Source of the DNA: Bacteroidia bacterium
GTDB lineage: Bacteria > Bacteroidota > Bacteroidia > Palsa-965
Assembly: GCA_038237845.1 (NCBI GenBank)
Contig: JBBRYH010000010.1
Coordinates: 25,692 to 89,691, forward strand
Reading direction: 5' to 3'
Length of the DNA: 64,000 bases
Of this stretch, positions 1,082-11,745 are shown one piece after another; position 1 is the stretch's first letter, and each line of letters begins with the position of its first letter. Both the position numbers and the translations under genes were made by a program. Below the pieces are notes generated by a model, which was not told where the DNA came from, made no database searches, and saw only the letters and a program-made list of their open reading frames with translations.

Positions 1082-4000
1082 TTAAAATTTGGCAGCCAGC
1101 ACACATGAACGTTTATAACTCTTCACTTTCCCATCGGCAGAAAAAACTTCAAAGTAAATAATGTAAGCACCGACTCTTGCTTTTGTGCGATCGTCCATGG
1201 TGCCATCCCAAGAGAGGGTTCCTTTTTCTGTACCGAGTAGTTCACTATGAACTATTGTTCTTACTAAGCGACCACGTGAATCATAAATCGTTACGCTAGC
1301 AACATAACCAGGAGAAGAAAAATTGTAATCAATATTTACCACATCATTAAATCCATCGCCATCCGGAGAAAAAATTGGTTCAGTAACAGTCACTTCTCCA
1401 TCGTCTGTGCCGCCTGGATTAAATTCTGAATTCTGTTGTGTCGGTGTTGCAAATCCTGCATTTTCAGCAGCAGAATGCCAGTTAGTTGCATCCTGTGTTG
1501 TACGATCAAAATCAATTCGCTCTAAAGAAACGCCCTTTGTGTTTTGTAACAATGGGAAATGCCAAGAACTTAAATAAATTAATTGATCAATGATATGAAA
1601 TCCAGTATCTGCTAACACTACAATATCTCCATCCACATTCATAGAAGGAATATTTGCCATATCTAAACATTTGTCGATGTCTGTAGTATTCGGATATTGC
1701 ATTTGAACAGTTGCTCCACTCTCACTTAAGACAAGATATTGTCCCGGAAAAAGTAAATATCCTTCAGGTGCAATTAGATTAAAATCATTTAAAGTATTAG
1801 TTAGCGTATCAAGTGTACACAAAACAAGATTTTTCAAATCAAGAACTTTTGTCGAACGATTATAAACTTCTACAAAATCAATACCGCCATTATTCGGATC
1901 AAACAAAACTTCATTGATAATAACATCATTGGGAAGAATTGCAGATGGCAAAGCAAATAGTGCTGTTCCAGGAGCAGCTAATTGATTCCCGACACAATCG
2001 GTCAATTGAAAATTAACAGTAATGGTGTAAATAATTCCGGTTGAAATGGCCGATGAAAGTTTCAAATCGCATTTTGAAAAGTCACTTCCAATTGGACGAA
2101 TGCTAATTGGATTGCCAATGCTATTGTCGATGGTATAAGAACTTAAACTTACCATCGTCAGACTGTCAAGTGATTCTGAAAACCACAAACGAATACTATC
2201 CGGAGCTAGAACAGAAACGCGAATAAAACGAGGTTTAATATTATCCGGATTCGATGCTGCAACACTGTTTCTATAACCCGGTGTTCCACCCGTTGTAGAA
2301 TTAGACGCAATCCAGTTTGAAGCGCCAGAGCAAGGGTTCAATGGATCAATCTGTTCAAGTGACCAGCCTCCGTTTTTTTTGGTTGTGTTTTGATACCACG
2401 TGTCGGAATAGGTTATGGAATGAATTACAATTCCGGTCGGCTCTCGCAGTGTAATCGTTCCTCCCGTATTGGTCAAAGTAGGAATGCTTGTAACCCCTAC
2501 AATATTGATTCCTGGATAAAGAGCAGCTGCGGTTGTCGATGTGAGCACAAGAAAACTATCAGCAGGAATTACTGCAGTTGGTATTACGCGCGTAGTAGTT
2601 CCAACACCAATCGTCCATCCTGTAACACTGATGGAATAGGACGTAGTATTATGCAATTCAAAATATTCTTCGTCCGGCAATTGAACAACTGGATTCGGAT
2701 CAGGCATGATTTCATTGATAACAATATCAAATTCCTGTAATTGATGATAAGAGAAATTTCCTGAGTTTGGACTCGTTGCGTTGCCTGCGCAATCAGTAAG
2801 TGCTGCAAAATTGATGGTATAGGAAGTGTTGTTGGCAAGTGAAGTTCCCAGTGTCAACGTTGCGCATTGAAGTGTGGCAGTATCGTAAGACATTGAAACA
2901 GGAATTCCAATAAGTGGTGAAATAGAATAATTCGAAAGGTTAGTTAAAGTGGAGGGATCGATTCCTTCATTAAAACAAATTTGTAAATGCAAACTATCTA
3001 TTGCAATGGCAGATAAAAGAATTGGCCCGGTAACATCAGGCGAATTATTAAAAACGGAATTTTGTGTTCCAGGAGTTCCTCCAGTTGGATTTATAGAAGC
3101 AATCCAATTTCCTGCTGGGGCACATCCAACATTTGTATTCGGATTAATTAATTCTAATGTCCAGCCTCCATTTTGTTTTGTAAGATCACGAAACCAGGTT
3201 AAATTATAATTGGCAGAATCAATTGGATTACTTCCCGCATCAAAAATTTTCAAATTGTCTCCAGCATTGTTTAGTGAGGGCCAAGATGAAAGTCCGATAG
3301 TCGGACCAAATGGAGAATACAAAGCTGTATCTGCGTTGGCGCAAAGAATAAGATAAGTACCAGCAGGAAGAACCTGTGCTCCAAAATTTCCTGTAGAAGT
3401 TCCGTCGGTAAATGACCAACCGCTCAAGTCAAAATTTGAGGTGCTGCGATTGAAAATTTCAACAAATTCAGAAGCGGGCAATCCTATAACAGGAGAAGGA
3501 TCTGCAAAAACTTCATTGATAATTACATCATGAAAAACAGCATTTGATATGGGAAGGTAAAGGAAGTTTGCAGTGGTAGAAGTAATTGCATTTGTATTTA
3601 AATCCTGAACATTTATTACGGTAAGAATGTAATTTGTTGCACTGATAAAATTCGAAGCAAAGGTAAGGTGAACGAGAGAGTGATTTGTTGCGTCACGTAC
3701 CGCTGAAGTCGGAATGCCGATGCTGTTATTGACGGAGTAGTTAGCAGCAACCTGTGAAGTAGTCAGATCAACATTTTCATCAAATGTTACATCGAGTTGT
3801 GTTGCTGAAATAGGAGTAGCAGATAAAATAGATGGAGCGGTTACGTCGACAATAATTGGCCCGACATAAAAATCGTCGTAATAAAATTTGGTGATATTGG
3901 ATACTGTGTATTTGCTGAAGATGCCGAAAAAATTACTCGTGGTATGTGTGTTATCAAATGTGGTCCCTTCGATTTGATAATTATAACCACCGAGTGTATC

Positions 4001-4525
4001 AGAATACATTGTGAAATTCCCCGTTGCATCTCTGATAACTTTTATTCTTAAAACATTATTGGTTGCAGCACAATGTGAATTTACACCATCTATGATTTTT
4101 GTTTGTGTGGCTCCGCTCTGTTCCCACAAATCAACACTGTCAAAAGAACCGTTTTCACCTAGACGAACATAATACCCATTAACTGCGCCAGTCAGCGTAG
4201 CAATGTCTGCAATGAGATAAACACGAACGTTATTATTATCTGAAGGAGCAAAATTTTCTCTAACCCAAAAATCCCATTCGGTATTTGCAACTGCTGTGCT
4301 TGGAGTAGAGAGATAGGCCGTATCCGAAACCGTTCCGTTCGATTGTAATTGAAAACCTGCATTCACAATATAATTTACTGCATCGCCTGTCCAAACTGTT
4401 CCGGTGGTGAAATTTCCATCGGAGAAATTATCGGTGAGTTGGGCATTGCTGTTTAATGAAAAACAAAACACTGAAACGAGAAAAAGTAGTATACGAGTTG
4501 ACAATTGTCCTTGATTTTTGGTCAC
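1082..4525 (-). CDS. Large secreted surface protein (1147 aa) with three lamin-tail-domain (LTD) repeats and a T9SS type-B (gliding-motility-associated, CHU_C-like) C-terminal domain.
   Basis: Signal peptide. Repeated LTD signature blocks VIINEVFADPSP, IVINEIMPDPNP, VIINEVLFDPNNGG. C-terminus FSPDGDGFNDVVNIDYNF...VTIYDSRGRLV matches the type-B CTD motif (F/SPNGDGxND ... YNRWG). Confidence 0.8.
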   Translation of the reverse strand: MTKNQGQLSTRILLFLVSVFCFSLNSNAQLTDNFSDGNFTTGTVWTGDAVNYIVNAGFQLQSNGTVSDTAYLSTPSTAVANTEWDFWVRENFAPSDNNNVRVYLIADIATLTGAVNGYYVRLGENGSFDSVDLWEQSGATQTKIIDGVNSHCAATNNVLRIKVIRDATGNFTMYSDTLGGYNYQIEGTTFDNTHTTSNFFGIFSKYTVSNITKFYYDDFYVGPIIVDVTAPSILSATPISATQLDVTFDENVDLTTSQVAANYSVNNSIGIPTSAVRDATNHSLVHLTFASNFISATNYILTVINVQDLNTNAITSTTANFLYLPISNAVFHDVIINEVFADPSPVIGLPASEFVEIFNRSTSNFDLSGWSFTDGTSTGNFGAQVLPAGTYLILCANADTALYSPFGPTIGLSSWPSLNNAGDNLKIFDAGSNPIDSANYNLTWFRDLTKQNGGWTLELINPNTNVGCAPAGNWIASINPTGGTPGTQNSVFNNSPDVTGPILLSAIAIDSLHLQICFNEGIDPSTLTNLSNYSISPLIGIPVSMSYDTATLQCATLTLGTSLANNTSYTINFAALTDCAGNATSPNSGNFSYHQLQEFDIVINEIMPDPNPVVQLPDEEYFELHNTTSYSISVTGWTIGVGTTTRVIPTAVIPADSFLVLTSTTAAALYPGINIVGVTSIPTLTNTGGTITLREPTGIVIHSITYSDTWYQNTTKKNGGWSLEQIDPLNPCSGASNWIASNSTTGGTPGYRNSVAASNPDNIKPRFIRVSVLAPDSIRLWFSESLDSLTMVSLSSYTIDNSIGNPISIRPIGSDFSKCDLKLSSAISTGIIYTITVNFQLTDCVGNQLAAPGTALFALPSAILPNDVIINEVLFDPNNGGIDFVEVYNRSTKVLDLKNLVLCTLDTLTNTLNDFNLIAPEGYLLFPGQYLVLSESGATVQMQYPNTTDIDKCLDMANIPSMNVDGDIVVLADTGFHIIDQLIYLSSWHFPLLQNTKGVSLERIDFDRTTQDATNWHSAAENAGFATPTQQNSEFNPGGTDDGEVTVTEPIFSPDGDGFNDVVNIDYNFSSPGYVASVTIYDSRGRLVRTIVHSELLGTEKGTLSWDGTMDDRTKARVGAYIIYFEVFSADGKVKSYKRSCVLAAKF

Positions 4526-4768: not shown

Positions 4769-5761
4769 ATGAAAATTGCAGTTGTCGGTGCCACAGGTTT
4801 AGTGGGAACTAAAATGTTACAGATTCTGGAAGAGCGAAATTTTCCTGTCACAGAATTAATTCTTGTTGCCTCTGAAAAATCAGCAGGGAAAGAAATCACA
4901 TTTAAGGGCAAGAAGTATAAAGTGGTAACTGCACAAACGGCAATTGAGATGAAACCACAGATTGCATTATTTTCTGCTGGAGGAGGTACTTCATTGGAAT
5001 GGGCGCCAAAATTTGCTGCTGCAGGAATTACAGTTATTGATAATTCTTCTGCTTGGAGAATGGATCCGACAAAAAAATTAATTGTTCCAGAAATCAACGC
5101 AGATGCATTGACTAAGGAAGATAAAATTATTGCAAATCCCAATTGCTCCACGATTCAAATGGTTGTTGCATTAAATCCCTTGCACAAAAAATACAAAATA
5201 AAACGAATTGTAGTAAGCACGTATCAATCGGTAACAGGAACAGGTAAAAAAGCAGTTGATCAATTGATGAATGAACGCGCTGGAACAAAAGGTGAAATGG
5301 CTTATGCGTATCAAATTGACATGAATGCTATTCCGCATATTGATGTGTTTTTGGAAAATGGATACACAAAAGAAGAGATGAAGATGGTGAATGAAACGAA
5401 AAAAATTATGCGCGATGATTCAATTCGTTTGACAGCCACAACAGTTCGTATTCCTGTGATGGGTGGACATTCCGAAGCGGTGAATGTGGAATTTGAAAAT
5501 GAATTCGAATTATCGGATGTTCGGAAAATTCTTGAAGAGGCTGATGGTGTAATCGTTTTGGATGATGTGAAAAACCTACAATATCCAATGCCGCTTATTC
5601 ATGCTCATGATAAAGACGATGTATTTGTTGGGAGATTGCGTCGAGATGAAACACAAGCGAAAACATTAAATATGTGGGTGGTTTCTGATAATCTCAGAAA
5701 AGGTGCAGCTACTAATGCAATTCAGATTGCTGAATATTTATTAAAGGCTGGATTAGTTTAA
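4769..5761 (+). CDS. asd: Aspartate-semialdehyde dehydrogenase
   Basis: N-terminal MKIAVVGATGLVGTKMLQILEER NAD-binding Rossmann motif, active-site region NPNCSTIQMVVAL, 330 aa. Confidence 0.93.
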   Translation: MKIAVVGATGLVGTKMLQILEERNFPVTELILVASEKSAGKEITFKGKKYKVVTAQTAIEMKPQIALFSAGGGTSLEWAPKFAAAGITVIDNSSAWRMDPTKKLIVPEINADALTKEDKIIANPNCSTIQMVVALNPLHKKYKIKRIVVSTYQSVTGTGKKAVDQLMNERAGTKGEMAYAYQIDMNAIPHIDVFLENGYTKEEMKMVNETKKIMRDDSIRLTATTVRIPVMGGHSEAVNVEFENEFELSDVRKILEEADGVIVLDDVKNLQYPMPLIHAHDKDDVFVGRLRRDETQAKTLNMWVVSDNLRKGAATNAIQIAEYLLKAGLV

Positions 5762-6765
5762 TCTACGTGAGGAGGAACTTCATCAGCAGGTTTTTCTTCA
5801 CCTGGATTTTCATTTCCTTCAACAGAACTTTCGTTTTCGTCCTTTGGATTTTCAATTACGGGAATTTCATCAGGAACAAATTCTGGCCATCGACGCAACA
5901 TATCGAACATTCCAACACCTAATGCGCCAGAGAGTCCAAGTACTAACCATACTTTAACTGCTGGTAGAGGATGAATAGTTGAAAAAATTGTGAAGTAAGT
6001 CAGCAAAAGAAATACAGAAATCAGAAACACGATAACACCAAATAAAATATTTGTTCCTAAAACCTTTTTACGACTTAAAGAAACAAGTTGTTTTCCGAAG
6101 AGCCTTCTTTGAAAAAGAATTAATAAAAACACTCCAACAGAAATAGACGCGTCGGCGATATTAAAAACAGGACGAAAGAATTGAAAATCTTCTCCTGCCC
6201 AAATAGGAAATTTCTCAGGGAAGGTTCCGGATATTACGGGGAAGTAAAACATGTCAACCACTTGTCCATGAAGAACACCTGCATAACCACCTTCTTTTGG
6301 CATGAACTGCGCAACGTTTTGATCCCACGCATCGCTGGCATTAAATATTTTTCCATAAAATACGCTGTCAAGAATATTTCCAAGTGCACCGGCAAAAATT
6401 AGAGCCACACAAACGATTAAGAGTGGGCGTACATTTTTTTTGAAGAGCGTAAATAAATAGTAACCTATTCCTGCTACTGCAGCGAGACGGAAAAGACTTA
6501 AAACAACTTTTCCCCATGCACCTTCACTGATTTCCCAACCAAAAGCCATTCCTGGATTTTCAACAAAATGTAAATAGAACCAGTCGCCGGAAACTTTATG
6601 TGCTTGCCCGAGGTACATATGTGTTTTGACCCAGATCTTAATTGATTGGTCAATGAATAGTACGGAGAGAATAATGGCAAGTGCTTTTTTCACGGATGTA
6701 AAGATAGGATTCGAAATATGAAACAAAAGCGAAAAAGTGCGAAAAAAGAATGTTCTGTAAAACAA
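5758..6765 (-). CDS. lspA: Lipoprotein signal peptidase II with a Bacteroidota-type insertion and an extra C-terminal TM plus acidic tail. Overlaps asd convergently by 4 nt.
   Basis: Motifs NPGMAFG, GNILDSVFYG, FNIADASISVG. The ileS...lspA neighbourhood is conserved. Confidence 0.85.
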   Translation of the reverse strand: MFYRTFFFRTFSLLFHISNPIFTSVKKALAIILSVLFIDQSIKIWVKTHMYLGQAHKVSGDWFYLHFVENPGMAFGWEISEGAWGKVVLSLFRLAAVAGIGYYLFTLFKKNVRPLLIVCVALIFAGALGNILDSVFYGKIFNASDAWDQNVAQFMPKEGGYAGVLHGQVVDMFYFPVISGTFPEKFPIWAGEDFQFFRPVFNIADASISVGVFLLILFQRRLFGKQLVSLSRKKVLGTNILFGVIVFLISVFLLLTYFTIFSTIHPLPAVKVWLVLGLSGALGVGMFDMLRRWPEFVPDEIPVIENPKDENESSVEGNENPGEEKPADEVPPHVD

Positions 6766-6810: not shown

Positions 6811-6848
6811 CCCAATAAAAAAGGCCTCCTGAAAAATACAAGAGGCCT
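6811..6848 (-). terminator. Intrinsic terminator for the ileS/H1-like/DksA-like operon: stem AGGCCTC/GAGGCCT followed on the minus strand by a T-run.
   Basis: 7-bp perfect stem at 6822-6828 and 6842-6848. Minus-strand downstream sequence is tttttattggg. Confidence 0.6.
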
Positions 6849-6867
6849 TAATAAATTTAAAATTCAC

Positions 6868-7569
6868 TTATCGATTTTGACCCAATTTGGCGTCAATACT
6901 AAGTGTTGCATGCGGAACACTACGTAAACGTTCTTTTGGAATTAGTTTTCCAGTAACGCGACAGATTCCGTAAGTTTTATTTGCGATTCGCATCAATGCA
7001 TTCTTGAGATTCTGAATGTATTTTTCTTGACGAGCAGCCAAGTGAGCGGTTTCTTCTTTGGAAAGAACATCAGATCCATCTTCGAGCAATTTGAAAGTGG
7101 GAGAAGTATCATCTGTTCCATGATCATCCTTATGAGAAAGTGTATTTTTGAGAAGTTCGTAATCACGACTCGCCTCATCCAATTTCTTTACGATAAGAAT
7201 TTTGAATTCTTTCAATTCTACCTCTGAATAACGTGTACGGTTATCAACAGGACCCGGTTTTGCTTTATGAGCAACTGGATTTGGTTTGGTGAAAGCAAAA
7301 GGTTTTGAAATCTCGACTTTCACAGGTGTAGTAGCTACAGGCTTCTTTACCGGAGCTTTAGCGACAACAACTTTTTTAGCGACTACTTTTTTAGCCACTG
7401 CTTTTTTGGCAACAACTTTTTTAGCAACAACTTTCTTTGCTACCACTTTTTTAGCTGCTGGTTTTTTAGCAACAACTTTTTTTGCTTTGGGTGCAGCTTT
7501 TTTAGCAGCTCCAGATTTTTTTGCTGGAGCTGCTTTTTTAGCTGACTTTGCTTTTACTTTCTTAGCCAT
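6868..7569 (-). CDS. Fusion protein: N-terminal histone-H1-like Lys/Ala-rich repeat region (about 100 aa of AKKVV repeats) plus a C-terminal DksA/TraR-family domain.
   Basis: Repeats AKKVVAKKVVAKKVV. C-terminal region YSEVELKEFKILIVKKLDEA...DDTSPTFKLLEDGS...LAARQEKYIQNLKNALMRIANKTYGICRVTGKLIPKERLRSVPHATLSIDAK matches Bacteroidota TraR/DksA proteins, which are typically encoded between ileS and lspA. Confidence 0.75.
   Translation of the reverse strand: MAKKVKAKSAKKAAPAKKSGAAKKAAPKAKKVVAKKPAAKKVVAKKVVAKKVVAKKAVAKKVVAKKVVVAKAPVKKPVATTPVKVEISKPFAFTKPNPVAHKAKPGPVDNRTRYSEVELKEFKILIVKKLDEASRDYELLKNTLSHKDDHGTDDTSPTFKLLEDGSDVLSKEETAHLAARQEKYIQNLKNALMRIANKTYGICRVTGKLIPKERLRSVPHATLSIDAKLGQNR
7290..7560. 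repeat. Imperfect ~15-nt tandem DNA repeats (gcaacaacttttttagc-like) encoding the KKVVA repeats.
   Basis: Read directly at 7360-7470. Slippage-prone. Confidence 0.6.
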
Positions 7570-7586
7570 TGTAGTTTTGGAATCAA

Positions 7587-8108
7587 TTAAAAATGATCGA
7601 ATGCGCCACGTGTGTCATTATCACTTGTGTGGTCGTTATCATCACTTATTTCTGGAGCATCTTCAGTAATTTCCATTGCCGGTTCGTCATCGGTCATGAT
7701 TTCTTCAAAAGCAGGAGGCGGAGGTGTGTGTACTACTTCAGGTTTTGGAGCAATCACGCTCGGAGCTGGTTTAGGCGCAACAACTTTTGGTGTCACCACT
7801 TTAGGCGCAACAACTTTAGGCATCACGACTTTAGGCGCTACTACTTTTTTTGCAGGAGCAACTTTTTTCGCGACAACTTTTTTAGGTGCTGCTTTTTTTA
7901 CTGTTTTTTTCTTTGCAACTTTTTTCACTGCTTTTTTCTTAGCAGGCTTTGCTTTCTTAGCTGCAACTTTTTTCTTAGGAGCCGGTTTTTTCTTAGCAAC
8001 TTTTTTAGCCGATTTTTTCACCGACTTCTTAGCTGCTTTTTTGGCGCCTTTTTTCTTTGCAGGTTTTGCTTTCTTAGAAGCTCCACCTTTTTTCGCCTTT
8101 TTAGCCAT
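7587..8108 (-). CDS. Histone H1-like basic protein (173 aa). The N-terminal Lys/Ala/Pro-rich region gives way to an acidic C-terminal tail.
   Basis: MAKKAKKGGASKKAKPAKKKGAKKAAKK...PKVVAPKVV then EEIMTDDEPAMEITEDAPEISDDNDHTSDND. The antisense poly-F ORFs on the plus strand are artefacts. Confidence 0.7.
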   Translation of the reverse strand: MAKKAKKGGASKKAKPAKKKGAKKAAKKSVKKSAKKVAKKKPAPKKKVAAKKAKPAKKKAVKKVAKKKTVKKAAPKKVVAKKVAPAKKVVAPKVVMPKVVAPKVVTPKVVAPKPAPSVIAPKPEVVHTPPPPAFEEIMTDDEPAMEITEDAPEISDDNDHTSDNDTRGAFDHF

Positions 8109-8119
8109 GAGTGTGTGTT

Positions 8120-11100
8120 TTAATTGTGTTTTGTAATGAGTATTAATGTTTTGATTTCGTCATCCACTTCTACTGTGACTGCTTCTTTTTCAAGAATTTC
8201 ACTCACAAGTTCGAGTGTAGTAGCAAGAGTTTCAGAGCAAATATAATTGAAATTGTTGCTCACAGCAGTAGCAAGTGCCTCGTGTGATTTAATCTTCACA
8301 TCAATACGGTCTGTGACTGCGAAATCATTGTCCTTTCTAAGGTTTTGGATGCGGTTTACCAGCTCCCTTGCCAGACCCTCTTCCTTCAATTCACGGCTTA
8401 ATATTACATCTAATGCAACCGTAAAACGACCATCAATCGCCACCAACATTCCCGGCAAATCGTCTACAAGTATCTCAACCTCAGCCCTTTCAATATTAAT
8501 TGTTTCTCCTTCCAAGGTTAAATCGAAGTTTCCGTTTAGTTCCATGGCAGCGATATCTGCTTGAGAAAAGTTTGAAAATGCTGCCGCCGCCGCCTTCATA
8601 TGCTTCCCAAGCTTCTTTCCCAATAATTTAAAATCAGGCTTGATTTTTTTTAAAAAAACACCTGATTCTGTGACATATTCTAGGGTTTTAACGTTGGTTT
8701 CAGCCAAAATAAGGTCTTTTACAAGCTCCAAACGGCCTTGAAACTGCTTGTCCAGCAGTGGAATCATGATACGATTTAAGGGCTGACGAACACGGATATT
8801 CACTTTTTTGCGCAAAGAAAGAACAAGAGAAGAAAATTTTTCTGCGAGTTCCATGCGTTCCTCTAATTCTTTATCAATTAGTTTTTCATTTGTTTTCTTA
8901 AGTAAAGTAAGATGAATTGATTCTGGTTTTGATGCTTTATTTTTTGCACCATCTTTCAGATTAGCATAAAGCCACTCTGCAAAAAACGGAGCGAATGGAC
9001 TCATCAATTGCGATACAGTATCGAGACACTCATATAATGTTTCATAAGCAGCTTGTTTGTCACGTGTCATTTCGCCTTTCCAGAAACGTCGACGCGAGAG
9101 ACGAACGTACCAATTGGATAAATGTTCATCTACGAAATTTTCAATTGCACGTGCAGCAGGAGTCGGATCATAATCATCCAAACGTTCAGTTACTAATTTA
9201 ACCAATGAATTTAAACGGGAAATTAACCAACGATCCAATTCCCCTCGTTCAGCAACAGGAACCATATTGTTTTCATCGAATTCGAAATCATCAATGTTCG
9301 CATAAAGAACAAAAAACCCATAGGTATTATATAGCGTTCCTAAAAATCCACGTTGCGATTGTACGATTCCTTCTGTATCAAATTTTAAATTGTCCCAAGG
9401 TGAAGCATTGGTAACCATGTACCATCGTGTTGCATCAGGGCCATATTTTTTTAAAGTTTCAAAAGGATCAACACCATTGCCCAAACGTTTGGACATTTTA
9501 TTTCCATTCTTATCCAATACAAGTCCGTTTGAAATAACGTTTTTGTAAGCGACAGAATCAAAACACATGGATGAAATAGCATGCAGCGTATAAAACCATC
9601 CGCGAGTTTGATCGACACCTTCTGCAATAAAATCAGCGGGGAAATATTTTTTCTGATCGATCAATTCTTTATTCTCGAACGGATAATGCAATTGAGCATA
9701 TGGCATCGATCCTGAGTCAAACCAAACGTCAATTAAATCGGGTTCGCGGAATAGTTTCTTTCCATTTCGCTCGAGAAAAATATCATCTGCATAAGGACGA
9801 TGCAAATCAAATGTCTTGTAATTCGTTGCAGAAAAATCTCCAGGATTAAAATTCTCCAATGGATTTTTTGACATGAAACCGGCTTTCATCGCGCGCTCAA
9901 TTTCATTTTTCAATTCTTCAGCAGATCCAATACAAACAATTTCTGTATGATCTTCACTTTTCCAAATCGGCAATGGAATTCCCCAAAAACGGGAACGCGA
10001 TAAATTCCAGTCCTGTAAATTATTCAACCATTCTCCGAAACGACCAGTTCCAGTTGATTCCGGTTTCCAGTTGATTGTTTTATTTAATTCCGCCATCCGC
10101 TCTTTTTTCGAAGAGGCTTTTACAAACCAAGAGTCAAGCGGATAATATAAAATCGGTTTGTCAGTTCTCCAGCAATGCGGATAATTATGCTCGTAAGTTT
10201 CTTTCTTGAATAATTTTCCTTCGTTCTGCAATTTCAAAACGATACGTTCATCTACACTCAGGTAATTCATCTTGGAAGTATCCTTGATGAGGAATTGCAT
10301 GTAGCCTTTTTGTTTCGCTAATTCTTCTACTTTTTCTTTTTCATTCAGGTAGTCTTCTTTTACAAATTCACCTGCTAAACCGAATTGCGCATCTTTTACT
10401 TCGGGACGAAATTTTCCACGAAGATCAACGAGCGGAACTGCTTTTTTATTTTCATCAAGCACGAGCATAGGAGGGATGTCTGCAATTTTCGCTACACGCA
10501 TATCATCCGCCCCGAAGGTTGGTGCAATATGTACAATACCTGTTCCGTCTTCTGTAGAAACAAAATCTCCAGCAATTACTTGAAATGCTTTATCTGCATT
10601 TTCATAGGGTAATGCATAAGGAAGAAGTTGCTCGTATTTTAATCCGACGAGGTCGGAACCCGACATTTCTCCGGCAATATGAAATGGAATTGCTTTATCT
10701 CCGGCTTTATAATCTTCAAATTTTAATTCAGCATTCTTCTCGGGAAAAAACTTTGAGCAAAGATCTTTTGCAAGAACAACTCTGATTTCCTGATGTGTAA
10801 ATGGATTGTAAGTTTTAACTTCAACATAACGGATATTATTTCCAACTGCAAGAGCAGTATTCGATGGCAAGGTCCACGGAGTCGTCGTCCAAGCTAAAAT
10901 GTAAAAATTATTTATTGGGTAATTAGTACGAGCACTATCAATTTTTTTTAAGAATGACTGAAAGATGTCGTTCTCTGTTATCTTAAACATCGCTGTCGCC
11001 GTGCGATCTTTCACCGAACGATAACATCCCGGTTGATTAATTTCATGTGAAGACAAACCAGTTCCTGCTGCAGGAGAATAGGGTTGAATGGTATATCCCT

Positions 11101-11623
11101 TGTACATCAAATTCTTTTTGTACAAATCCTGTAACAACCACCAAACACTTTCGATGTATGTGTTTTCATAGGTAACATACGGGTGTTGCATGTCTACCCA
11201 ATAACCCATCATACGCGTAAGTTCTTCCCATTTGTCGGTGTACTTCATTACTTCATTACGACAAGCAGTATTATATTCCTCAATAGAAATTTTCTTTCCA
11301 ATATCTTCTTTGGTAATGCCAAGTGTTTTTTCAACACTCAATTCGATTGGCAATCCGTGTGTATCCCAACCTGCTTTACGTTTAACTTGTTTTCCTTTTA
11401 AAGTTTGGTATCGACAGAAAATATCTTTCAGTGCGCGACCCATTACATGGTGAATGCCGGGCATTCCATTTGCAGAAGGAGGACCTTCATAAAACACAAA
11501 AGGTTCTGCTCCCTCACGTGAAGAAACACTTTTCTCAAAAATTTTATTTTTATCCCAGTCTGCTAAAACCTTTTCCGCTATTTCCGGAAGATTCAAAGAA
11601 GAGAATTCCTTGTACTTTTTCAT
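8120..11623 (-). CDS. ileS: Isoleucine--tRNA ligase (type 2 IleRS). Start taken at MKKYKEF, not at the upstream start reported in the ORF track.
   Basis: HIGH-region PSANGMPGIHHVMGRALKD, KMSKR motif (NGNKMSKRLGN), about 1167 aa, C-terminal type-2 extension. Confidence 0.95.
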   Translation of the reverse strand: MKKYKEFSSLNLPEIAEKVLADWDKNKIFEKSVSSREGAEPFVFYEGPPSANGMPGIHHVMGRALKDIFCRYQTLKGKQVKRKAGWDTHGLPIELSVEKTLGITKEDIGKKISIEEYNTACRNEVMKYTDKWEELTRMMGYWVDMQHPYVTYENTYIESVWWLLQDLYKKNLMYKGYTIQPYSPAAGTGLSSHEINQPGCYRSVKDRTATAMFKITENDIFQSFLKKIDSARTNYPINNFYILAWTTTPWTLPSNTALAVGNNIRYVEVKTYNPFTHQEIRVVLAKDLCSKFFPEKNAELKFEDYKAGDKAIPFHIAGEMSGSDLVGLKYEQLLPYALPYENADKAFQVIAGDFVSTEDGTGIVHIAPTFGADDMRVAKIADIPPMLVLDENKKAVPLVDLRGKFRPEVKDAQFGLAGEFVKEDYLNEKEKVEELAKQKGYMQFLIKDTSKMNYLSVDERIVLKLQNEGKLFKKETYEHNYPHCWRTDKPILYYPLDSWFVKASSKKERMAELNKTINWKPESTGTGRFGEWLNNLQDWNLSRSRFWGIPLPIWKSEDHTEIVCIGSAEELKNEIERAMKAGFMSKNPLENFNPGDFSATNYKTFDLHRPYADDIFLERNGKKLFREPDLIDVWFDSGSMPYAQLHYPFENKELIDQKKYFPADFIAEGVDQTRGWFYTLHAISSMCFDSVAYKNVISNGLVLDKNGNKMSKRLGNGVDPFETLKKYGPDATRWYMVTNASPWDNLKFDTEGIVQSQRGFLGTLYNTYGFFVLYANIDDFEFDENNMVPVAERGELDRWLISRLNSLVKLVTERLDDYDPTPAARAIENFVDEHLSNWYVRLSRRRFWKGEMTRDKQAAYETLYECLDTVSQLMSPFAPFFAEWLYANLKDGAKNKASKPESIHLTLLKKTNEKLIDKELEERMELAEKFSSLVLSLRKKVNIRVRQPLNRIMIPLLDKQFQGRLELVKDLILAETNVKTLEYVTESGVFLKKIKPDFKLLGKKLGKHMKAAAAAFSNFSQADIAAMELNGNFDLTLEGETINIERAEVEILVDDLPGMLVAIDGRFTVALDVILSRELKEEGLARELVNRIQNLRKDNDFAVTDRIDVKIKSHEALATAVSNNFNYICSETLATTLELVSEILEKEAVTVEVDDEIKTLILITKHN

Positions 11624-11745
11624 TGTATTGAGGTCTCCTTGTGGAGGACGGCAAAGATAACCATGTGTCTTGAGACCAATGACATACAAATGGAGATTTT
11701 AATTGCGGAAATTGGCTGAAAGGCTAATTCTAAACCTAAAAAGCG

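Follow-up and report, generated by a model that had tools for sequence, protein, structure and literature searches.

A histone H1-like polycation joined to the ileS-linked DksA-like protein of an uncultured Bacteroidota lineage

Introduction

Why should a DksA-like protein, of a family known for binding RNA polymerase, begin with a tail that resembles histone H1? The question is raised by two neighbouring genes that lie between ileS, encoding isoleucyl-tRNA synthetase (IleRS), and lspA, encoding signal peptidase II, in a 64-kb stretch of DNA from a Bacteroidia bacterium (GenBank assembly GCA_038237845.1, contig JBBRYH010000010.1, positions 25,692 to 89,691; hereafter the window, numbered from its first nucleotide). 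A first-pass annotation had drawn attention to the interval 6868-8108, which corresponds exactly to two neighbouring open reading frames (ORFs) on the minus strand. One is a stand-alone histone-H1-like gene of 173 amino acids (aa) and the other is a fusion gene of 233 aa, in which a Lys-rich extension precedes a DksA-like domain. On the minus strand the order is thus ileS, the 173-aa ORF, the 233-aa ORF, a hairpin and lspA. In an independent public assembly both genes are identical and are called at the same lengths. We consider it probable, with some reserve, that the locus is a Bacteroidota module of the type represented by DdbA of Streptomyces, which would combine a DNA-binding polycationic arm with an RNA-polymerase-binding DksA-like domain. 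What is new is a phylum-level instance of a known architecture, together with an undescribed partner gene and repeat alleles that differ between strains.

Results

The fusion ORF is uninterrupted, without an internal stop. Residues 1-88 of its product are 35% Lys, 26% Ala and 22% Val, with a net charge of +30 and an isoelectric point of 11.2, and over residues 1-110 the net charge is +33. This composition is rare in the window. Of 834 stretches of 80 aa sampled from its long reading frames, only 7 have a Lys content of 30% or more, and the only ORFs of 60 aa or more with over 20% Lys are the stand-alone and fusion genes. An AlphaFold2 model of the fusion protein, built from 42 sequences, predicts the extension to be disordered, with a predicted local distance difference test (pLDDT) score below 50 across most of aa 6-102. 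Residues 30-69 are made up of eight AKKVV-type pentapeptides, which are encoded by a 15-nt array (7365-7482; period 15, 7.9 copies, 76% matches in Tandem Repeats Finder), and the rest of the extension is Lys/Ala/Pro-rich with no strict period. The extension of about 100 aa of AKKVV repeats that had been described for this protein is therefore present as a Lys-rich arm, of which some 40 aa are true AKKVV repeats.

Following the arm, residues 111-233 form what profile matches, structural homologues and the predicted fold identify as a DksA/TraR-like domain, in agreement with its first description. The Pfam model zf-dskA_traR (PF01258) matches at aa 199-227 with 31.2 bits, against a gathering cut-off of 24.9, and the NCBIfam DksA and YteA models (TIGR02420, TIGR02890) give partial matches only. 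Sequence searches of the PDB recover DksA from Chlamydia (6ptg, 8.8e-8), DksA2 from Pseudomonas aeruginosa (4ijj, 6.9e-6) and DksA from Escherichia coli (1tjl, 0.008). The model predicts two long helices (116-144 and 171-196, pLDDT ~90) separated by a 26-residue loop, then a beta hairpin (200-211) and short C-terminal helices, and in a Foldseek search of the PDB DksA proteins take the first six places, at probabilities of 0.90-1.00. The tip of the helical pair, S145-T174 (SHKDDHGTDDTSPTFKLLEDGSDVLSKEET), is invariant at 27 of 30 positions among 42 homologues and at least 90% conserved at the other three, which is the pattern that would be expected of a polymerase-contacting part. Within it D164-G-S-D167-V-L169 is invariant and aligns with the DEADLA stretch of DksA2 (4ijj). 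The zinc finger is degenerate (C203-x2-T206 ... S224-x2-A227), leaving one of the four canonical Cys, and the same single-Cys pattern is seen in Bacteroidota-type homologues both with and without an extension.

The joining of the two parts is widely kept among relatives. A scan of one genome per species yielded 179 related loci, and the best 80, all of them metagenome-assembled genomes of uncultured Bacteroidota, were retained. An in-frame extension that starts with MAKK precedes the domain in 76 of these 80, ranging from 75 to 236 aa in length and from ~27 to 38% in Lys content. The four exceptions are two loci cut at contig ends, one gene with a stop at codon 4 and one ileS without a stop. 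At least 69 of the 76 extended genes directly follow ileS, the 3′ end of ileS being uncaptured in the remaining loci, and in most of these loci lspA is the next gene. Thus the fusion cannot be put down to a missed stop codon, a possibility that had been raised for the gene in the window, since it is a single open ORF whose frame is held across relatives. Nor was the extension acquired by this particular protein, as had been supposed: it is common to the whole lineage and was not gained in this genome.

Two of the exceptions are worth describing. At locus L014 (~2850-3830) codon 4 of the Lys-rich DksA gene is a stop (MAK*), the remainder being intact and in frame; either this is a sequencing error or the start has moved downstream. 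At L078 (119-4381 of JAJTCJ010000034.1) an ileS lacking its stop runs in frame into a GTG-started Lys-rich DksA gene. The resulting 1420-aa ORF may represent a genuine IleRS-H1-like-DksA fusion, or the assembly may be wrong here. Many relatives also carry a short motif near the start of the arm, PAKKSGAAKK or else ARPAGGK / PARNSGGK, which is better kept than the remaining arm (window aa 14-24; L048, L061, L066, L071, L072; P0121).

With the DksA domain alone as query, the 120 best matches share 81-100% identity and nearly all are 212-251 aa long. Three short matches of 128-148 aa (P0024, P0090, P0111) are NCBI annotations, which probably reflect an internal start call that drops the Lys-rich arm. 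Further out, among the nearest 141 clusters formed at 50% identity, a Lys-rich extension (67-274 aa, median length 185 aa) is present in 62 and absent from 50, though the former fraction is inflated by fast-evolving tails that split clusters. At 51-65% identity there are three distant fusions, which again come after ileS and in two cases before lspA, and a 126-aa version without extension likewise follows ileS. The order ileS, DksA-like gene, lspA is therefore conserved, as the first-pass annotation had it.

The stand-alone protein is divided by charge. Its residues 1-115 are 42% Lys with no acidic residue (net charge +48) and include five PKVVx pentapeptides specified by a 15-nt array (7770-7848; period 15, 5.2 copies, 71% matches in Tandem Repeats Finder). 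Residues 116-173 are Pro-rich and then acidic, with 28% Asp+Glu and a net charge of -14. An alignment of 18 such tails shows conserved hydrophobic anchors amid the acidic background, and the final G[AQ]FDHF followed by the stop is found in 23 of 23 copies (22 loci and the window) and nowhere else in those loci. Membership of the HC2 and Burkholderia H1-like families was considered for both proteins and is ruled out by scores below cut-off: HC2 (PF07382, cut-off 40) gives 32.3 bits for the fusion and 16.8 for the stand-alone protein, and NF038053 (cut-off 80) gives 26.7 and 33.1, respectively. The term 'H1-like' thus denotes composition and not family membership, and it is in this sense that the earlier description of a stand-alone H1-like protein with an acidic tail holds. 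A search of a large protein database with the whole protein, swamped by low-complexity words, returned 2 weak matches, and the acidic-tail profile recovered no more than seven 'hypothetical proteins' of 27-76 aa (P0279-P0285). From these searches, which are insensitive, the family appears to be confined to one clade.

A neighbour-joining tree of the ileS C-terminus and the DksA domain places the 24 species with the stand-alone gene, including that of the window, in a single clade. In the other clades a single long fusion gene is present. Its extension measures ~104-236 aa and usually closes with a short acidic patch (DLDDDG...DEVPMVVEY) immediately ahead of the DksA domain. Relative to these sister clades the stand-alone gene is an extra gene, which bears out its first description as an insertion. 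Because the stand-alone gene is found in one clade and single long fusions in the others, this arrangement suggests the hypothesis of an ancestral long fusion gene that underwent partial duplication or a split. Local alignment of the stand-alone tail with the region of the long fusions that comprises acidic patch and linker (DD-x-P-M-[IV]-V-E-Y, NTDTRTRYSD) gave no significant score, at most 3.3 standard deviations over shuffles.

Repeat number varies between strains, as had been anticipated. In a sister population we find alleles of 229, 231, 236, 241, 246 and 251 aa, all of which except the 229-aa allele differ by whole xAKKx units, while between their DksA domains there are at most 1-2 differences in 125 positions. 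In the closest species (95% domain identity) the Lys-rich sequence is unrelated past approximately the first 30 residues. Judging by these comparisons, the tails would evolve by gain and loss of 15-nt (5-aa) units, and selection seems to act on charge and composition whilst the sequence itself turns over. The slippage-prone ~15-nt repeats that had been postulated are borne out as period-15 arrays in both genes; their units, however, are imperfect. In the window they are 63-80% identical at the DNA level and the longest exact repeats are 18 nt, and thus the array is not a perfect slippage substrate.

The stand-alone gene begins 11 nt after the ileS stop and the fusion gene 17 nt after the stop of the stand-alone gene. 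Starting 19 nt past the fusion stop is a hairpin (6849-6821) with an 11-bp stem, including 6 G-C pairs, followed by TTTTATT, and it separates the three genes from lspA, which lies ~100-250 nt from the fusion gene depending on the lspA start chosen. Because of the short gaps and the terminator-like hairpin downstream, co-transcription of these three genes is probable, with ileS as the first gene of the putative operon. We found no full -33/-7 Bacteroidota-type promoter (TTTG N17-23 TAnnTTTG) on the coding strand between or near these genes; matches to this pattern occur at chance level, as do those of sigma-70-type scans. A -7-like TATCTTTG element (TAnnTTTG; 11652-11659, minus strand) lies ~30 nt upstream of the likely ileS ATG. 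A second TAnnTTTG element (8238-8245, minus strand) lies inside the 3′ end of ileS, 137 nt upstream of the H1-like gene, in a stretch where ~0.1 matches are expected by chance.

Discussion

The closest parallel is DdbA (SCO2075) of Streptomyces coelicolor. Its 93-aa N-terminal H1-like region carries lysine pentapeptide repeats and binds and condenses DNA in vitro, whilst its C-terminal DksA-like domain retains four Cys and the two tip aspartates (PMC3643593). The basic region varies in length between species, and orthologues were found by the authors in streptomycetes only (Aldridge et al. 2013, PMC3643593). As in the window, a Lys/Ala-rich pentapeptide-repeat arm directly precedes a DksA-like domain in one polypeptide, and the gene lies between those for IleRS and lsp: SCO2075 is flanked by lsp (SCO2074) and the IleRS gene (SCO2076), an order taken from locus numbering only. 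The fusion is thus less unusual than it had been thought to be, given that DdbA has the same architecture and that so many of the related clusters are extended. There are clear differences, with DdbA compared here by its published description. It belongs to Streptomyces and not to Bacteroidota; its finger has four Cys where ours has one; its repeats are (S/T)(A/T)AKK rather than AKKVV-type; the extension reaches 236 aa in relatives of the window; here the fusion has as its neighbour a stand-alone gene for another H1-like protein, one with an acidic tail; and the protein described here has an invariant acidic tip loop of 26 residues. Because the short (~126 aa) and the armed Bacteroidota homologues have the same degenerate finger, the H1-like arm was probably gained independently in Streptomyces and Bacteroidota, as far as sequence on our side and published description on the DdbA side allow the two to be compared.

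A third DksA-like gene directly beside ileS is ylyA of Bacillus subtilis, which has a role in sporulation or germination. YlyA is not known to carry a Lys-rich extension, and its gene is followed by lspA. The adjacency of ylyA to ileS is recorded (PMC5282499), and YlyA is listed with the nearest homologues of DksA (PMC3113569). Since both ylyA and the gene for DdbA also adjoin ileS, gene order indicates that the ileS-linked position of a DksA-like gene is old. Solved DksA structures (1tjl and 7khi from E. coli; 4ijj; 6ptg), which give the best matches by sequence and by fold, share with the model a coiled coil, a globular fold and an acidic DxxD tip. The stretch of 6ptg that aligns has a single Cys, and 4ijj has C-x2-T and C-x2-A in place of the CxxC pairs. 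None of these proteins, however, has a polycationic N-terminal extension or the 26-residue invariant tip loop. AlgP and PhaF of Pseudomonas, Chlamydia Hc2 and the Burkholderia-type H1-like proteins share Lys/Ala/Pro-rich disordered repeats with the proteins of the window, and the KPAA repeats of AlgP also vary in number between clones (PMC9239181). The similarity is compositional, and these proteins lack both the GAFDHF-terminated acidic tail and a DksA fusion as partner. In searches of the literature no description of a Bacteroidota H1-like/DksA fusion and no experimental work on DksA-type regulators in Bacteroidota turned up.

We propose the following for how the module might work. The DksA-fold of the C-terminal 123 residues, with its antiparallel coiled coil, invariant acidic tip and globular domain with a single-Cys finger, would by homology enter the RNA-polymerase secondary channel. 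As a disordered polycation like the C-terminal tail of histone H1, the first 88-110 residues would most likely bind DNA non-specifically through charge. The arm would thereby hold the regulator on the nucleoid beside transcribing polymerase and may link DNA compaction to transcription, as proposed for DdbA in Streptomyces. The 173-aa polycation (+48) is probably nucleoid-associated as well, and its acidic tail may moderate its own DNA binding or dock onto the partner.

Several points weigh against this proposal. What the sequence data establish is gene structure, domain identity, predicted fold and disorder, conservation, synteny and repeat polymorphism. That the Bacteroidota proteins bind DNA and the polymerase, that the genes are transcribed together and what the acidic tail does are matters that we infer rather than observe. 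The element ending at 8245 could be an internal promoter within ileS. Foldseek E-values are modest, at 0.01-0.1, because half of the model is disordered, and scores fall far short of the DksA equivalog models (TIGR02420, 44.3 against 115.5 bits; NF033459, 38.5 against 105 bits). The finger lacks the canonical CxxC-N17-CxxC arrangement of four Cys, and the tip motif is DxxDxL, not DxxDxA, in a 26-residue loop between long helices. With a finger so degenerate and a tip loop of this kind, secondary-channel function could differ from that of E. coli DksA. In B. subtilis, moreover, knock-outs of DksA-like genes including ylyA leave rrn P1 regulation unchanged (PMC3113569). Finally, Lys-rich tails bind polyphosphate and RNA too, as AlgP does (PMC9239181).

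This last point leads to an alternative that we regard as fairly unlikely, in which the main ligand of the Lys-rich regions is not DNA but another polyanion, for example polyphosphate granules or RNA and ribosomes. The module would then organise granules or condensates, in the manner of AlgP and PhaF, or serve translation beside ileS, and there would be no tethering to the nucleoid. The apparent operon with a tRNA synthetase gene fits such a role, as does a tail that is driven by charge and has no intrinsic DNA specificity; AlgP, of H1-like composition and variable repeat number, localises to polyphosphate granules and controls their spacing (PMC9239181). Yet KPAA-type peptides also bind DNA (PMC9239181), and in DdbA, which alone among proteins with this pair of domains has been tested, it is DNA that the Lys-rich half binds and condenses (PMC3643593). 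The RNA-polymerase-binding fold of the fused partner also places the protein at the nucleoid. We give somewhat less credence to the idea that secondary-channel regulation by the DksA-like domain has been lost, leaving a protein that is mainly nucleoid-associated or has another partner; this parallels a suspicion held about some TraR/DksA-like paralogues. The loss of three Cys, the shortfall against the equivalog models, the moderate confidence at which the 26-residue tip loop is modelled and the unaffected rrn P1 in the knock-outs, including that of ileS-adjacent ylyA (PMC3113569), all speak for it. Against this, the tip is the most conserved part of the protein, two of its aspartates align with DEADLA of DksA2, and DksA-family structures with Cys-poor fingers have been solved (4ijj, 6ptg).

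That the extension is an annotation artefact, with translation from an internal start giving a protein of ~130 aa and the Lys-rich frame open merely by low complexity, seems to us barely credible. It would agree with the NCBI lengths of the three short relatives (P0024, P0090, P0111), and the low-complexity DNA here is indeed open on the opposite strand too. However, there is no internal ATG between codon 1 of the fusion gene and the DksA-like domain, other gene callers arrive at the long protein, the differences among strain variants are mostly whole, codon-multiple units, and the MAKK start and the frame persist in the 76 species in spite of the range in length and the turnover in sequence. 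The practical consequence is one of annotation. Public pipelines sometimes trim the Lys-rich part of the fusion, and the partner gene is apparently sometimes called as its acidic tail only, a tiny hypothetical protein like the seven recovered by the tail profile.

Returning to the DdbA-type module, a large uncultured Bacteroidota lineage routinely joins an H1-like polycation to its only ileS-linked DksA-like protein, and in Streptomyces the same fusion occupies the same chromosomal position. This parallel suggests that a nucleoid-tethered secondary-channel factor is a recurrent, selectable solution. The natural length variants (75-236 aa across species, together with the copy-number alleles among strains) offer material on how tail length relates to function. 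More speculatively, and as something of a long shot, the two genes may form a pair with complementary charges, derived from an ancestral long fusion by partial tandem duplication, in which the GAFDHF acidic tail serves as a docking peptide, comparable to the acidic C-terminal tip of the single-stranded DNA-binding protein SSB, that binds the Lys-rich arm or RNA polymerase. If so, the tail would set how much of the regulator is free, DNA-bound or in a condensate, and the pair would constitute a two-component chromatin/transcription switch specific to one uncultured Bacteroidota clade.

Gene neighbourhood

Coordinates of the locus and its flanking genes are collected in Table 1.

Table 1. Features of the ileS-lspA region, in window coordinates, with the evidence for each.
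Feature	Position	Strand	Evidence
ileS, isoleucyl-tRNA synthetase	8120..11689	-	ORF; Pfam tRNA-synt_1 2.5e-114, Anticodon_1, DUF5915
Stand-alone histone-H1-like gene, 173 aa	7587..8108	-	ORF; gene call in independent assembly; syntenic homologues in 22 related loci
Polycationic part of stand-alone protein (aa 1-115)	7764..8108	-	Composition; tandem repeats
Pro-rich linker and acidic tail of stand-alone protein (aa 116-173)	7590..7763	-	Composition; alignment of 18 tails
GAFDHF, last six residues of stand-alone protein	7590..7607	-	G[AQ]FDHF and stop in all 23 copies
Fusion gene, 233 aa	6868..7569	-	ORF; Pfam; identical protein P0001 in public data
Lys/Ala/Val/Pro-rich extension of fusion protein (aa 1-110)	7240..7569	-	Composition; low pLDDT; repeats
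DksA-like domain of fusion protein (aa 111-233)	6871..7239	-	AlphaFold2; Foldseek; PDB sequence matches; partial TIGR02420/TIGR02890 matches
Invariant tip region S145-T174	7048..7137	-	Conservation in 42 sequences; alignment to 4ijj; model
Degenerate zinc-finger region of fusion protein	6889..6963	-	Sequence
Terminator-like hairpin	6811..6849	-	Pattern scan; sequence
lspA, signal peptidase II	5758..6765	-	Peptidase_A8 5.8e-35; NF011369 263 bits; 286-aa public gene call

The probable true start of ileS is an ATG near 11623 (MKKYKEF), and the public gene call is of 1158 aa. For lspA the likely true start is the GTG at 6618, giving the 286-aa product. Depending on the start, lspA encodes a long protein of 286-335 aa, and within the 335-aa ORF Peptidase_A8 is limited to aa 31-217; the C-terminal extension, of ~100 aa, contains an additional hydrophobic stretch and an acidic tail (...ENPKDENESSVEGNENPGEEKPADEVPPHVD). 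Opposite both Lys-rich genes, the plus-strand ORFs 7286-7669, 7593-8123 and 7612-8136 have Phe/Leu/Cys-rich translations; we rejected them as genes and regard them as mirror artefacts of the low-complexity coding strand. The 64-kb window contains no rRNA. Elsewhere in it, a minus-strand gene at 1082-4525 encodes a 1147-aa protein with LTD and Big_5 domains and a weak CHU_C match, from which it is possibly a type IX secretion substrate. Adjoining this gene is one for aspartate-semialdehyde dehydrogenase on the plus strand (4769-5761).

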